Below are positions 19,785-23,416 of a stretch of DNA of 41,654 nt, piece after piece (within the stretch, counting starts at the first letter, position 1; every line of letters starts with the position of its first letter). Both the position numbers and the translations under genes were made by a program. The DNA is taken from positions 1 to 41,654 of IMG/VR virus record IMGVR_UViG_2531839667_000017; one strand, written 5' to 3'. The notes beneath the pieces were generated by a model. The model was not told the DNA's origin and did no database searches. It was given only the letters and a program-made list of their open reading frames with translations. This DNA is from a virus (Duplodnaviria > Heunggongvirae > Uroviricota > Caudoviricetes).

Positions 19785-20222
19785 TTATTTTAAGCACTGC
19801 GTCCTGATGTATTCCTGCAGGTAGTTAACCTGCGCGGTTATCTTGTCGATTCCACCTCGGAGACGGTAATAATTGAGTTCAGCATCTGCTGTAAGCCCTG
19901 GGCTTTCTCCATCGCCCATGCTGCTGGCTCCGGTCGTTGACTTTGCACAGGTGGCGGAGACTTGCAGGCGCTTACGACCAGCAGAAACATCGGCACGGAG
20001 ACTTTCGATAGTCGCGTTAGCATCAGCAAGTTCCTTTGTATATCTTGCGTCGAGTTCTGCTACATCACGTTGACGCTTCTGCATATCAGCGATGATGGAT
20101 GTGGCTTTATCGCGCTGCTCTTTGTAGGCGATGGCGTTATCACGGTAATGATTAACAGCCCATGACAGGCAGAGGATGATGCAAATAACCAGAGCGGAGA
20201 TAATCGCGGTTACCCTGCTCAT
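19785..20222 (-). CDS. Rz: i-spanin Rz
   Basis: 145 aa from ATG 20220-20222 ([31 protein letters not shown]...); N-terminal TM plus coiled coil; start overlaps endolysin stop. Confidence 0.88.
19838..20029 (-). CDS. Rz1: o-spanin Rz1 (lipoprotein, embedded in Rz in the +1 frame)
   Basis: 63-aa ORF wholly inside Rz; signal peptide ending in lipobox-like LVVSAC, then Pro-rich segment. Confidence 0.7.
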
Positions 20223-20716
20223 TGCTGCCCCCACAAACAGACTTCACGCTCAATATCACGACGGGTCATCAGCCCTTTCCATTGCTTACCGCCAGCGTAT
20301 GTCCAGCGACGTAGCTGGTCACATGCGCCTTTGATATCACCCTGGTTTATTTTGCGAAGAAGCGTCGATGTTCTGAAATTACCAGCGCCCACGTTGTAAA
20401 CGAACGAGTAAAGAGCGCCGCGCGTTGTTTCCGGTATATCGACTTTGATGTACGGGTTAATTTGTCTGGCGACCGTGGCAAGGTCTTTATTCAGGAGGGC
20501 TTTGCATTCTGCTTCGGTATACGTTTTACCGGGAATGATGTCTTTTCCGGTGTGTCCGTGACATACAGTCCATACGCCAACGATATCTTCGTATGGTATG
20601 TAGCTGACACCTTCCAGGCCATCGTCACCACTCGGACCAGTGATGAGCACAGACGCTATGGCAACAGCCCCACCACCAATAGCAGCAGCAACAGCCTTGC
20701 GTAATGATGGCGACAT
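20219..20716 (-). CDS. R: SAR endolysin (lysozyme with N-terminal signal-anchor-release domain), phage-21 R-like
   Basis: 165 aa; Gly/Ala-rich weakly hydrophobic N-terminus ([20 protein letters not shown]) followed by a lysozyme domain; very similar to phage 21 endolysin as recalled. Confidence 0.85.
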
Positions 20717-20931
20717 TATTCACCTCTCGCAGCCTTACGCTTATCTTCTTTAATCTTGAAATAAAGGTTTGTCAGATACGTCAGCAAGCCAAACACCAGG
20801 CTACCCAATACGCCTATTGCCACCCACTGGGATGGGGAGACTTTGTCCAGCAACTGCAGTAGCCAGTATCCCGTCCCCACCGCTGACGTGGTGTATGACA
20901 CACCTGTTGTGATTTTTTCCATCTGGTACAT
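20716..20931 (-). CDS. S: pinholin, phage-21 S-like, with dual translational starts (ATG 20929-20931 and ATG 20920-20922)
   Basis: 71 aa [26 protein letters not shown]...[14 protein letters not shown]; two TM segments; Met1/Met4 dual-start motif; stop overlaps endolysin start (TAATG). Confidence 0.85.
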
Positions 20932-21339
20932 ACCCCGTCTCCCGTTATCCGGAAGCTGACAACAATAAAAAGCCACCAGTTAATTCCTGATGGCCCTGAT
21001 GCATAAACGTCATAATACCTGACTGTTATGATTGACAATAATGATAATGTTTATATAGAAAGGTTCCCGATGTGTGTTACATATCATTTCTCCACGGGGA
21101 ATATCCCCACGCCAGCGCAGACTCTTTTACCCGTTCTCTTCTGCGCTGGCTCTTTTTTATTATGCTGCTGCATTTACCTCTGGCACCATGCTTTCTATCT
21201 CAACACAATACGTGGTACTTCTTGTAACCAATATCATAACGATTAATCGACATAGAATTTCTCCCGTGTACAGGAACAGAGTTAAAAAGCCGGAACCGGA
21301 ATCAAATCACAGGATGACCATCTGCCAGTGGCAGGTCAT

Positions 21340-21366
21340 AAAAAAAAGGCCGCGCCATGCGCAGCC
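21340..21366 (-). terminator. intrinsic terminator on the late strand (candidate tR')
   Basis: Minus-strand RNA GGCUGCGC-AUG-GCGCGGCC (8-bp stem with one G-U) followed by U8. Confidence 0.65.
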
Positions 21367-21796
21367 AGAACTCACAAGGAAAATGATAGAAGGAAATAAC
21401 ATTAGTGATGTACGCATGGCGCCTCCCGCTAAGTTCTGCAATGATCAAACAGAACTCGCTACGTGCCCTTAAAACTCGATCATTTAGCCCCTCCAAGGAG
21501 GATTCACCATGCGGTTGATTTTTTAATAAACAGTAAACAAAAAAGTCAAGAATTATTCATTCTGTTCTTTCATCATCGGCCACAGCAATACCACAATGCC
21601 GCAGACCAGAGCGCCATCAGTCAGTACCAACATTATCCTGCTGGTGAAATCCATCATCACCATCACTAAAAGCAGGATCACAACAGCAAGCAGACACAGT
21701 TTATAAAACAATGTTCAGAAAACGCATTCAGCATGCCTAAGGTTCTATTCCTACGAATAGCCAACTTGCAACTTAAAATATTATTTATGCAGCCAA

Positions 21797-22555
21797 TTAA
21801 ATTCTGGTCCTTACAATATCAACCTGAAGATTCTTATCTTGTGCTGATTGATAAATGACAAACCTTTTACTACCTGCATTGAAAGAAGTAGACAAAACCA
21901 GACAATTATCATAACGAGCAAGAACATAATACCAACCATCATTATAATTAATCATTTCATATTCTTTCTTAAACTGCGGTTTGTAATATCCTGTCAGAAA
22001 TGAAAAAAGCCAGAAATATGCCACAAAAGCAATCATCACAATCTCAAAAAAATGTTTTTTTATAAATGGCTTATCATAGAAGCATGATACCGATAAAAAT
22101 CGCCCATAAGATCTTATCGAAATTGTAACCGCCAGCGCAATCGCTGCTGACAGTAGCAAAAGAGGTACCTGAATCTTCTGTCTCAATATAGAAAACTCAA
22201 TAATTGCCGGCACAAACAATAATTCCACAGCAAAATAAAGGCGAAATACATTTAGCTCTTGCATAGAATGTTTTCTTTTCACTGCGAAAAAGAATACAAC
22301 ACCAATACCCCAACCGATAAGAAATATAGCAATGACGATAACTGCAAAAAATAAACTTCTGGCAACATCATCAACACCTGCACCTACAATCCACCATGGG
22401 AAGCCGTAGTAAAAAGAAGTACCCCATCCATAGAAATAAGCACTCCCCCATCCAAGGCATCCCATGTAGGCAATAAAAAGTGAAGAACTCCTGAGCAGTG
22501 CACCATCCTTCATAACCACCCCAATACAAGATGATAACATTGGCTTACAACTCAT
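21797..22555 (-). CDS. AT-rich polytopic inner-membrane protein of unknown function (moron)
   Basis: 252-aa ORF (start uncertain; in-frame ATGs at 22555, 22540, 22513); four to five predicted TM helices and a ~55-aa soluble C-terminal tail; markedly AT-rich against flanking phage DNA; lies between pR' and the lysis cassette. Confidence 0.6.
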   Translation of the reverse strand: MSCKPMLSSCIGVVMKDGALLRSSSLFIAYMGCLGWGSAYFYGWGTSFYYGFPWWIVGAGVDDVARSLFFAVIVIAIFLIGWGIGVVFFFAVKRKHSMQELNVFRLYFAVELLFVPAIIEFSILRQKIQVPLLLLSAAIALAVTISIRSYGRFLSVSCFYDKPFIKKHFFEIVMIAFVAYFWLFSFLTGYYKPQFKKEYEMINYNDGWYYVLARYDNCLVLSTSFNAGSKRFVIYQSAQDKNLQVDIVRTRI

Positions 22556-22721
22556 AACAAAAGCAATTCAATGCCGTCAAGAGGTTACAGGCTAAAAAAA
22601 CTCTATTACATTGCAGTCAGCATGTTTACTACACAAATACAATTCAGAGCATAAAAACTACTCGGCGGCAGGTTATTGAGACTCATCAATGACATGTAAA
22701 AAACGCCCATTATTGGTGTCA

Positions 22722-22750
22722 AGTTTCCCCAAAGTTATTCAAAAAGTCAA
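22722..22750 (-). promoter_or_regulatory. late promoter pR' with Q-binding region (-35 TTGACT at 22745-22750; -10-like GAAACT at 22722-22727)
   Basis: Directly downstream of the Q stop; minus strand TTGACT-ttttgaataactttggg-GAAACT is homologous to, but diverged from, lambda pR' as recalled. Confidence 0.55.
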
Positions 22751-22792
22751 TATTATGCCGTTAATATGTTGCCATCCGTGGCAATCATGGCG

Positions 22793-23416
22793 CTAACGTG
22801 TGATCGCATTCAAAATGTTGTCTGCGATTGACTCTTCCTTGTGGCATTGCACAACCAGAGCGTCATACAGCGGCTTAACAGTGCGTGACCAGGTGGGTTG
22901 GGTAAGGTTTGGGATTAGCATCGTCACAGCGCGATATGCGGCGCTTGCTGGCATTCTTGAATAACCGACGCCTTTACATCTTCCGCACTCTTTCTCAGCA
23001 ACTATCCCCCACTGCTCTGTTTTGGCTATATCAACCGCACGGCCTGTACCGTGGCAATCTCTGCATCTTGCGCCCGGCGTAGCGGCACTACGGCAATAAT
23101 CCGCATAAGCGAATGTTGCGAGCACTTGCAGTACCTTTGCCTTAGTATTTCCTTCAAGCTTTGCCACGCCACGGTATTTCCCCGATACCTTGTGTGCAAA
23201 TTGCATCAGATAGTTGATAGCCTTTTGTTTGTCGTTCTGGCTGAGTTCGTGCTTACCGCAGAATGCAGCCATTCCGAATCCGGCTTGTGATTGCGCCATC
23301 CCCATAGCAGCCATCACATCAGTACCGGAAAGAGAGTCAGAAGCCGTGGCCCGTGGTGAGTCGCTCATCATCGGGCTTTTTGGCGAGTGAAATTTAGCTA
23401 CGCTTTCGAGTCTCAT
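22793..23416 (-). CDS. Q: late gene antiterminator Q
   Basis: 207 aa, MRLESVAKFHSPKSPMMSDSPRATASDSLSG...; near-identical to lambda Q as recalled. Confidence 0.92.
   Translation of the reverse strand: MRLESVAKFHSPKSPMMSDSPRATASDSLSGTDVMAAMGMAQSQAGFGMAAFCGKHELSQNDKQKAINYLMQFAHKVSGKYRGVAKLEGNTKAKVLQVLATFAYADYCRSAATPGARCRDCHGTGRAVDIAKTEQWGIVAEKECGRCKGVGYSRMPASAAYRAVTMLIPNLTQPTWSRTVKPLYDALVVQCHKEESIADNILNAITR

Follow-up and report, generated by a model that had tools for sequence, protein, structure and literature searches.

A lambda-type Q and pR' joined to a known prophage cargo cassette with two small RNA genes in the late-control region of a lambdoid prophage

The segment that runs from the antiterminator gene Q to the lysis genes in this viral DNA is an already described prophage cargo cassette, and the unusual late region noticed in it is real but ordinary. 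We put at about 80% the probability that this is the late-control region of a lambdoid prophage nearly identical to PP4 of enteropathogenic Escherichia coli (EPEC) E2348/69, in which a lambda-type Q with its pR'/qut sequences has recombined with a widespread cargo cassette, beyond which lie lysis genes of the phage 21 type. Within the window (the whole 41,654-nt stretch of DNA that was analyzed, in which the late strand is the minus strand), positions 20700–22860 are 99.9% identical to PP4, with three point changes in 2161 nt, and the two are the same across Q, pR', the cargo, the small RNA (sRNA) PasD1, an Esr41-like element and the lysis genes (NC_011601, ~1058356–1062017). The arrangement is therefore not a new rearrangement, the locus having already been seen as PP4. 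At least 80% of the same region is present in 562 of 5426 complete E. coli genomes (~10%), and among the genomes compared 512 carry it at 99% identity or more. The features on which the argument draws are as follows, in the order in which late transcription would meet them.

22793–23416, minus strand: Q antiterminator of the lambda family, 207 aa (PF03589, E = 1.2e-57)
22750–22745, minus strand: pR' -35 hexamer TTGACT, from direct reading and alignment to lambda (NC_001416)
22744–22728, minus strand: 17-nt pR' spacer, which in lambda holds the Q-binding element
22727–22722, minus strand: pR' -10 hexamer GAAACT, from direct reading; identical in phage 2B8
22706–22722, minus strand: predicted Q-loading signals, comprising TTGACA (22722–22717), a 2-bp gap, AATAAT (22714–22709) and GGG (22708–22706), from alignment with lambda
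22698–22703, minus strand: T6 tract at ~+12 to +17 of the predicted pR' transcript, from direct reading
22651–22674, minus strand: vestigial promoter-proximal terminator, AACCTGCCGCCGAGTAG followed by T5, aligning with the annotated terminator of phage 434 and with E2348/69 prophage PP2
22531–22560, minus strand: predicted sigma-70 cargo promoter, TTGTTA, 18 nt, TATCAT, with TG upstream (consensus scan, 9/12)
21797–22513, minus strand (open frame up to 22555): cargo gene 1, a 238-aa multi-helix membrane protein with no assigned function (phrog_1521, E = 2e-154)
21553–21711, minus strand: cargo gene 2, a 52-aa DUF3927 membrane peptide labeled "TciB-like" (PF13064, E = 3.4e-14; phrog_1470)
21340–21512, minus strand: PasD1, a 173-nt Hfq-dependent sRNA, identical at 173/173 positions to NC_011601 1060260–1060432
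21366–21348 (stem) and 21347–21340 (T8), minus strand: intrinsic terminator of PasD1, with an 8-bp stem containing 7 GC pairs, a 3-nt loop and -14.0 kcal/mol; the "candidate tR'" of the preliminary description
21314–21339, minus strand: hairpin ATGACC-TGCCA-C-TGGCA-GAT-GGTCAT directly after the T8, folding as a bulged hairpin
21144–21253, minus strand: deletion scar of a sialate O-acetylesterase gene (SASA family, nanS-p type), from comparison with 434, 2B8 and PP2
21071–21160, plus strand: Esr41-like sRNA convergent with PasD1 (Rfam Esr41 match below threshold; RIL-seq)
20962–20995, minus strand: second late-strand intrinsic terminator found by scan (-14.0 kcal/mol, tail TTTTATTGT), ~30 nt upstream of the start codon of the holin gene S
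20716–20931, minus strand: S21-type class II holin (pinholin), 71 aa, with the dual start MYQM (PF04971, E = 2e-32; start as annotated in E2348/69)
20219–20716, minus strand: SAR-type lysozyme with an Ala/Gly-rich N-terminus (PF00959, E = 2e-45)
19785–20234, minus strand: Rz (PF03245, E = 1e-34)

The preliminary description had offered two interpretations of this region. One of them is supported by the comparisons: recombination would have brought a Q/pR' module like that of lambda up against a lysis module like that of phage 21, with cargo taken up between the two. Similarity of the Q/pR' part to lambda, HK97 and HK022-type phages stops at ~22706–22713, and from ~22674 onward the window follows the cargo cassette that stands behind a different, Q82-type antiterminator in phage 434 and PP2. 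Lambda and HK97-type phages lack this extra DNA, whereas 434 and PP2 have it as one block after another kind of Q. In this, and in ending with its own terminator (21366–21340), it resembles a moron, a set of promoter, gene and terminator inserted between conserved phage genes; the promoter is here a predicted one (22560–22531). At its far end, an S21 holin, a lysozyme with an N-terminal signal-anchor-release segment and Rz follow one another as in a phage 21-type lysis cassette. We rest the significance of these features on homology and not on motif counts, because scans of positions 20600–23000 for promoter and terminator patterns returned numbers no higher than the shuffled expectation (5 promoter-like sites in the consensus scan vs 6.7 expected; 3 terminator-like sites in the pattern scan vs 2.1 expected); such scans were accordingly dropped as evidence of function in their own right. 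Across the whole window, Rfam at curated thresholds gave zero matches, and no tRNA genes were found.

The switch itself is close to that of lambda. Q lies directly upstream of the late promoter, its stop codon 42 nt before the -35, and it is the near-lambda protein that had been recognized by eye, with 203 of 207 residues identical to lambda Q (98%) and L135Q, R138I, V140A and V205I as the only differences; it is full length in all but one of the carriers examined. Alignment to lambda, whose pR' reads TTGACT, 17 nt and TAAATT, bears out the earlier reading of the promoter too: the -35 and the spacing are conserved, 14 of the 17 spacer bases are identical (the changes being A>T at -28, A>C at -19 and A>T at -18) and the -10 is GAAACT. 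Of these positions, -18 is variable among HK97 and HK022-type phages as well, and the text of the structural paper places the Q contacts at positions 1–4 and 11–13 of a 13-bp site. Both -10 changes lead away from consensus, with GAAACT matching TATAAT at 3/6 positions and TAAATT at 4/6, and the promoter falls below the call level in the consensus scan. GAAACT could be a much weaker -10 than assumed. It does retain A at -11 and T at -7, the critical positions of a -10 element. This promoter allele occurs at 18 of the 122 pR' sites that viral contigs, reference loci and the window itself yielded, and sister alleles that share its leader (L004 and L089) keep TAAATT. V140A and V205I in Q, with R138I in most cases, always accompany it. 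We make no claim of co-adaptation between Q and promoter; with the substitutions lying within 250 bp of the promoter, inheritance as one linked block suffices as an explanation.

Directly downstream, the window has what a sigma-dependent pause element comprises, namely a -10-like hexamer followed by GGG and preceded by a -35-like TTGAC. The corresponding lambda signals are TTGACT, a 1-bp gap, AACGAT and GGG; what AACGAT (+1 to +6) and the discriminator-like GGG do there has been defined (PMC4005639). Both AATAAT and TTGACA are closer to consensus than their lambda equivalents, and the one additional base before the pause element is also found in another natural allele, TTGACATCAACGAT. The preliminary description had the sequence diverging just past the start point; similarity in fact runs through the pause element (CACCAATAATGGG in the window vs CTCAACGATGGG in lambda), although it is indeed lost after ~+9. 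As judged from these motifs, the Q-loading signals are intact and arguably stronger than those of lambda, which may be a new point.

Beyond the pause, the two systems part. The lambda late cassette consists of Q, pR', the Q-binding element QBE, a sigma-dependent pause and tR', which ends the 194-nt 6S RNA. The window has no lambda-style tR' within 200 nt of pR'. At the place where phage 434 has its promoter-proximal terminator there is only a remnant, whose hairpin energy is -1.5 kcal/mol vs -12.2 in 434 and -6.2 in PP2; the tR' hairpin of lambda reaches -26.6 kcal/mol. Three U-tracts do occur in the first 125 nt of the leader: the T6 at 22703–22698, which is not a terminator because so little RNA precedes it that no hairpin could form; the T5 at 22657–22653, which follows the remnant hairpin; and a T7 at 22600–22594, which follows an AU-rich hairpin of -5.5 to -6.2 kcal/mol. 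Folding of the 159-nt leader (z = -0.14 against shuffled sequences) showed no compact GC hairpin before a U-tract and rules out a hidden tR' there.

A survey of hairpins with U-tails over 22750–20900 found only two canonical terminators, at 21366–21340 and 20995–20971 (each -14.0 kcal/mol), so that the first lies 1.37 kb downstream, as had been noted and as the pattern scan also returned. The label "displaced tR'" that had been attached to this first terminator is misleading, in that the terminator belongs to PasD1 and the true remnant of a tR' sits, degenerate, at 22674–22651. In function, however, the earlier reader was right: RNA polymerase that lacks Q modification meets no efficient stop in this allele until it reaches the PasD1 terminator. 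With the proximal terminator reduced to a vestige, the PasD1 and pre-S terminators would be the real barriers for Q, and this too may be new. At the place equivalent to the pre-S terminator, phage 434 has an annotated terminator.

The assignment to PasD1 rests on full identity, including the Rho-independent terminator, to an sRNA of the PasD family (PasD1/PasD2; EcOnc13) whose published coordinates are NC_011601 1060260–1060432 (PMC8550237, Table S6). Northern blotting has confirmed that RNA, which requires Hfq (PMC8550237), and the sequence of the probe occurs at 21356–21379 of the window. The Rfam model STnc100 (RF02076) aligns over its full length at this site with 37.7 bits (E ~9e-6), below its 47-bit gathering threshold. 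A relationship between PasD and STnc100 has been proposed, and pasD1 has been placed next to holin and lysozyme genes, in a 2026 preprint (bioRxiv 10.64898/2026.05.13.724894). The nested ATGACC...GGTCAT palindrome described earlier is the hairpin that follows the T8; it is present, one base away from where it had been put (21314–21339, not 21313–21338), and a conserved copy stands upstream of the esterase gene in 434, 2B8 and PP2.

The other dyad that had drawn attention, GCCAGCGC...GCGCTGGC at 21111–21150, is a perfect 11-nt inverted repeat on the late strand (21111–21121 and 21140–21150), exactly as described. It serves as terminator to an sRNA encoded on the plus strand, where it reads GCCAGCGCAGA...TCTGCGCTGGC followed by a T-run (hairpin energy -20.1 kcal/mol). 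RIL-seq chimeras labeled E2348C_1013 at 1060613–1060654(-) correspond to window positions 21118–21159(+), and the RNA-seq values for this label are a baseMean of 2064 and a log2 fold change of -2.9 (PMC8550237). The Rfam Esr41 model (RF02676) aligned a seed-like CAUUUCUCCACGGGG and the terminator but scored 32.3 bits (E = 0.0023), below its 102-bit gathering threshold. We call the element Esr41-like only, because of this sub-threshold score and because authentic Esr41 sits in O-island 43, outside lambdoid late regions (PMC8565820). Both sub-threshold Rfam matches, STnc100 and Esr41, were used only alongside the exact PasD1 identity and the published RIL-seq.

From pR' to the lysis genes the order is membrane-protein gene, DUF3927 gene, PasD1, esterase scar and convergent Esr41-like sRNA. 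Two further PHROG profiles start at the MKDG start of the membrane protein, which is identical in PP2 and PP4 (WP_001302581.1) and has homologues of ~237–238 aa across the Enterobacteriaceae, grouped in Pfam PF27470 and all annotated as hypothetical. It had no match in the local Pfam copy or in PADLOC, its PHROG matches are all of unknown function, and its AlphaFold model (pLDDT 57.5) is too low in confidence for a fold search. For the second protein, "TciB-like" is an annotation label only, a literature search on TciB having returned nothing relevant. The esterase scar is legible from both of its ends: 21253–21229 matches the first 25 nt of the esterase gene in 434, 2B8 and PP2, and 21228–21144 is ~81% identical to its last ~70 nt together with ~15 nt past the stop codon.

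Set against known systems, the window resembles lambda in its Q, -35, 17-bp spacing, -35-like and -10-like pause element and GGG; it differs in its -10, its three spacer changes, the extra base before the pause element, the lack of a nearby tR' and its phage 21-type lysis genes. In phage 434 and in PP2 the layout is a Q82-type antiterminator, tR', the same cargo, PasD2, the nanS-p esterase, PasA and the holin. These share with the window the membrane protein, the DUF3927 peptide, a PasD and the post-terminator hairpin, with homology beginning at tR'; they differ in antiterminator family and promoter, in having the esterase gene where the window has a scar, in having PasA where the window has the Esr41-like RNA and, for 434, in an intact tR'. 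Phage 2B8, which we take to be a plaque-forming isolate, has the same Q, pR' and cargo as the window at 98.2% identity in a 48.8-kb record classified as phage; a literature search on it found nothing relevant. The layout is also that reported for lambdoid prophages of enterohemorrhagic E. coli (EHEC), where moron genes and convergent sRNAs lie 3' of PR' (Tree et al. 2014, PMC4104026): Q, PR', moron genes, facing sense and antisense Hfq-binding sRNAs, then conserved late genes. The EHEC morons hold the sRNAs AsxR or AgvB and stx cargo, whereas the window holds PasD1 and the Esr41-like RNA with a membrane protein and a DUF3927 peptide. A further parallel is StxS of Stx phages, an sRNA that arises when transcription from PR' ends prematurely (Sy et al. 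2020, PMC7547250). Like PasD1, it binds Hfq and ends at a terminator that blocks late transcription in the lysogen; unlike PasD1, which lies past two genes at 1.2 kb downstream from pR' and probably has a promoter of its own, StxS is the PR'–tR' transcript itself, with 258 nt from PR' to tR'.

We envision the following course of events at this locus. In the lysogen, pR' would fire at reduced strength, because its -10 matches consensus at just three of six positions, and Q-free polymerase would pass the vestigial tR' and add to transcription of the cargo, a read-through that we only infer. The cargo probably has its own promoters as well, one before the membrane-protein gene and one before PasD1. 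The PasD1 terminator would halt all late-strand transcription, backed up by the terminator before S, and the lysis genes would therefore be kept silent. After induction, Q would bind between the -35 and the -10 and load onto polymerase paused at AATAAT-GGG, and the modified polymerase would cross both terminators and go on to transcribe S, R, Rz and the structural genes. Published RNA-seq of E2348/69 gives baseMean values of 6 for Q, 147 for the membrane gene, 8652 for pasD1, 5.4 for the holin and 3.9 for the endolysin (PMC8550237), so that Q and holin RNA are low and PasD1 and Esr41-like RNA abundant. Cargo RNA at 147 beside Q at 6 is compatible with an own cargo promoter and with pR' read-through alike. 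Its level in PP4, where the proximal tR' is vestigial (147), is similar to that in PP2, where the tR' is better but partial (226), which an internal cargo promoter fits at least as well as read-through does, although this comparison is uninformative because the copies are near-identical and reads may be shared.

Several other readings of the locus can be set beside this one. The most ambitious holds that this pR' allele family has lost its proximal terminator, that an always-on pR' drives a 1.37-kb lysogenic-conversion transcript encoding the membrane protein and the DUF3927 peptide, that the PasD1 terminator is the working tR' and part of the PasD1 pool the processed 3' end of that transcript, a long-range analogue of StxS and lambda 6S, and that the -10 down-mutations and the strengthened pause are compensatory tuning; we think this unlikely. 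Somewhat better placed, if still doubtful, is a conventional switch, in which pR' transcripts would end within the 200-nt untranslated leader at weak hairpin/U-tract signals or through Rho, the cargo and PasD1 would be transcribed from their own promoters only, the PasD1 terminator would be a plain moron or sRNA terminator, and Q would override several modest barriers. The three leader U-tracts, the promoter-like site directly before cargo gene 1 and, by direct reading, a putative PasD1 promoter, in which TTGACT (21549–21544) and TAAAAA stand 18 nt apart ahead of the PasD1 start as published, are what it would call for, and it accords with cargo RNA being alike in PP4 and PP2 despite their unequal tR' quality and with PasD1 and PasD2 being equally abundant behind different Q/pR' types. 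The leader itself speaks against it: its hairpins reach -1.5 and ~-6 kcal/mol vs -12 to -27 in 434, HK97-type phages and lambda, its structure is no greater than that of shuffled sequence, and, being AU-rich rather than C-rich, it would make a poor Rho substrate by the usual criteria.

The promoter changes invite another explanation, in which the -10 substitutions and the lost tR' are neutral decay in a cryptic prophage whose pR' and Q no longer drive the late genes. That both changes leave the consensus, that sister alleles with the same leader still have TAAATT and that the late genes are silent in E2348/69 RNA-seq (though silence is expected of any lysogen) would fit such decay. Yet the identical allele is present in the phage-classified 2B8 record, Q has stayed full length in nearly every carrier examined, the -11 A and -7 T are kept, the pause element and its -35-like hexamer are nearer to consensus than those of lambda and the region is conserved at 99% or more in 512 genomes, all of which makes decay quite improbable. 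Least credible, and very unlikely in our judgment, is the other interpretation offered at the outset, an extended Q-utilisation region that would take in the entire 1.4 kb and use the dyads as Q-related signals. Dyad symmetries are indeed present, and they are all that speaks for it; the Q-loading signals are compact and positioned as in lambda, the interval is filled by two conserved protein genes and two experimentally supported sRNAs, the same interval stands behind an unrelated Q82-type antiterminator in 434 and PP2, and lambda Q is loaded solely at the promoter and the adjacent pause site (PMC9388147).

The main value of the analysis is thus a correction: the "displaced tR'" and the dyads are the terminators of two Hfq-associated prophage sRNAs, and no new category is needed because the cargo site that holds both sRNAs had been mapped before in EPEC and EHEC. 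Residual interest, which may appeal to those who work on Q antitermination and on prophage sRNAs, attaches to the allele itself, which, in ~10% of complete E. coli genomes, combines a near-lambda Q, a weakened -10 and a near-consensus pause element with no proximal terminator. It could serve as a natural test case for how much weight tR' carries when cargo terminators lie downstream, and for whether pR' feeds the expression of lysogenic cargo and PasD1.

The late operon of the window lies on the minus strand and reads from the antiterminator gene Q through the late promoter pR' and a cargo of genes and small RNAs (sRNAs) to phage-21-type lysis genes, beginning with the holin gene S:

22793-23416, minus strand: Q, 207 aa (Pfam PF03589, E = 1.2e-57)
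22750-22745, minus: pR' -35 TTGACT, 42 bases 3' of the Q stop codon
22727-22722, minus: pR' -10 GAAACT, 17-nt spacer from the -35
22560-22531, minus: candidate internal promoter TTGTTA-18-TATCAT
likely start 22513, minus: membrane protein, 238 aa (phrog_1521, Pfam PF27470)
after the membrane gene, minus: DUF3927 peptide, 52 aa, annotated TciB-like
before PasD1, minus: candidate internal promoter TTGACT-18-TAAAAA
21512-21340, minus: PasD1 sRNA
21366-21348 plus T8, minus: terminator 1, -14.0 kcal/mol
21314-21339, minus: bulged hairpin ATGACC-TGCCA-C-TGGCA-GAT-GGTCAT, directly 3' of the PasD1 T8 tract
21144-21253, minus: scar of a sialate O-acetylesterase gene (SASA family, nanS-p-type), from sequence comparison with PP2 and 434
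21071-21160, plus: Esr41-like RNA, its terminator a perfect 11-nt dyad GCCAGCGCAGA...TCTGCGCTGGC plus T-run
20995-20971 plus TTTTATTGT, minus: terminator 2, pre-S, -14.0 kcal/mol

Q is identical to lambda Q at 203 of 207 residues. Reading the promoter and aligning it with lambda, which has TTGACT, 17 nt and TAAATT at the same place, bore out the preliminary description of a near-lambda Q, a kept -35 and 17-nt spacer with two or three changes (three positions differ) and a -10 of GAAACT. In viral contigs, the AACT-spacer promoter allele never occurs without Q V140A and V205I, and in most of them R138I is there as well; residues 138 and 140 lie within the Q arm (114-152), which touches DNA and sigma region 4, and the pairing may be a plain haplotype or co-adaptation. 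In lambda the sigma-70-dependent pause element is AACGAT (+1 to +6) and then GGG (PMC4005639). The window aligns with it, reading TTGACA-CC-AATAAT-GGG against TTGACT-C-AACGAT-GGG in lambda, so the Q-loading signals are all present. The -35-like and -10-like elements are nearer consensus than lambda's and have one extra base between them, giving a 2-bp gap that is seen in another natural allele too. The leader had been said to diverge just past the start point; similarity to lambda-type leaders is indeed lost, but only beyond about +9, and the Q-loading signals remain alike. A T6 tract at 22698-22703 (minus strand) would occupy about +12 to +17 in a transcript from pR', the place of the sigma-dependent pause of polymerase in lambda (+16/+17), and its weak rU:dA hybrid could alter the pause position or cause slippage or early release.

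Matches to lambda, HK97 and HK022-type phages stop at about 22706-22713 and take in only Q and pR', whereas those to phage 434 and PP2, a prophage of E. coli E2348/69, begin at about 22674 and run downstream, the cassette there lying behind a Q82-type antiterminator. Recombination has therefore joined a lambda-type Q/pR' module to a portable cargo cassette, and the leader is where they meet. This supports one of two readings offered earlier, a recombination junction with captured cargo; the other, a functional extended Q-utilisation region, found no support. In one IMG/VR contig, pR' is of the window type, GAAACT included, as far as a vestigial tR', the terminator shortly 3' of pR'; 434/PP2-type variants follow at once, which puts a natural recombination breakpoint at this remnant. 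In 434 (locus L001, 103-1269) and PP2 (locus L124, 106-1280), a lambda-type Q is cut to an N-terminal fragment by an opposite-facing lipid A deacylase (LpxR) gene, and the Q82-type antiterminator farther along has assumed its role, the original Q having been replaced through this second cargo insertion.

The joined arrangement is common. Window 20700-22860 is 99.9% identical (three mismatches) to E. coli O127:H6 E2348/69 NC_011601 1058912-1061072, within prophage PP4; at least 80% of the region is held by 562 of 5,426 complete E. coli genomes, and 512 records match it at 99% identity or more, O26:H11 and O103 strains among them. Phage 2B8 shares this Q and an identical pR', and carries the cargo at 98.2%. 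The layout is that of the EHEC prophages of Tree et al. 2014 (PMC4104026), in which moron genes after PR' are followed by convergent sRNAs and then conserved late genes.

A pattern scan and our own hairpin-plus-U-tail survey of the late strand from 22750 to 20900 agreed on only two canonical terminators between pR' and S, confirming that the first strong one lies at 21340-21366. Its interpretation as a displaced tR' gave way: PasD1 (published at 1060260-1060432 of E2348/69; PMC8550237 Table S6) occupies 21512-21340 with 173/173 positions identical, so the candidate tR' is PasD1's own terminator. That a long constitutive pR' transcript nonetheless has this terminator as its true tR' we consider unlikely. 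Folding of the 159-nt leader showed no more structure than in shuffled sequence (z = -0.14). Phage 434 has an annotated terminator, AAACCCGCTGCCGAGTGGG plus T8, 3' of its Q82-type promoter, and its aligned counterpart in the window is AACCTGCCGCCGAGTAG plus T5; the hairpin comes to -12.2 kcal/mol in 434 but only -1.5 in the window, with PP2 between them at -6.2, compared with -26.6 for lambda tR' and -13.9 for the HK97-type terminator. The degraded tR' is common to all members of the window-type pR' allele family, including two sister alleles that keep TAAATT, and its loss is therefore older than the two -10 substitutions.

PasD1 is Northern-blot validated, Hfq-dependent and equated with EHEC EcOnc13 (PMC8550237); the Rfam STnc100 model matches its interval below threshold, and a 2026 preprint links PasD to STnc100 and remarks that holin/lysozyme genes typically adjoin pasD1. 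Published pasD2 loci differ in having an esterase gene between, because that gene is deleted here: 21253-21229 is its first 25 nt, with ribosome-binding site and ATG retained, and 21228-21144 matches its 3' end in PP2 and 434 at about 81% identity. The ATGACC...GGTCAT hairpin has no U-tail and is kept in 434, 2B8 and PP2, where the esterase gene follows it. Within PasD1, a perfect 10-nt complement (GCGCCATGCG / CGCATGGCGC, 21352-21361 and 21413-21422) links an internal segment to the terminator stem and would allow a competing alternative pairing. The 5' part (21475-21495, minus) carries a strong Shine-Dalgarno-like GGAGGGG, with an ATG 5 nt on opening a 4-codon mini-ORF (MIEF, stop); the 62-aa membrane protein annotated in this region of 434 is probably not real.

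Membrane-protein homologues of about 238 aa occur across Enterobacteriaceae; a PADLOC search gave no match, and the modelled structure has low confidence. The plus-strand element is named Esr41-like only, since the authentic Esr41 is encoded in O-island 43 and not here. RefSeq places a 132-aa hypothetical protein, E2348C_1013 (WP_012578864.1), at 21074-21472 (plus), starting inside this sRNA and antisense to PasD1. Pfam and PHROG lend it no support, and published RIL-seq chimeras of that name, partnered with entC and dnaK leaders, map exactly to 21118-21159 (plus). The ORF is probably spurious, because its high Hfq-dependent RNA-seq signal (log2 fold change -2.9 in the PMC8550237 DESeq2 comparison) and these chimeras map to the sRNA terminator.

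Published E2348/69 RNA-seq (PMC8550237) gives baseMean values of 6 for Q, 147 for the membrane gene, 8652 for pasD1, 2064 for E2348C_1013 (Esr41-like), 5.4 for holin and 3.9 for endolysin; late-strand transcription thus climbs after Q, is highest at PasD1 and falls off at its terminator. Cargo RNA in PP2, which has the better tR', is similar to that in PP4, these copies being near-identical and their reads possibly shared. We infer that in the lysogen pR', probably weakened, would transcribe the cargo together with the candidate internal promoters, and the lysis genes would be kept silent by the PasD1 terminator, with the pre-S terminator as a second barrier; upon induction, Q would load at the conserved pause site and carry polymerase through both.

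Of the features that define a lambda-type Q switch, the Q-family antiterminator and the pause element with its -35-like element are present, and the proximal terminator was sought and not found. The promoter keeps the -35 and the 17-nt spacing but has a deviant -10, and the spacer, which holds the Q-binding element in lambda, agrees with lambda at 14 of 17 bases. None of the parts is new in kind, and for most the very sequence has been published before. Only a modest point of novelty is left: an allele, common in nature, that dispenses with a proximal tR' and combines a down-mutated -10 with a stronger pause element.
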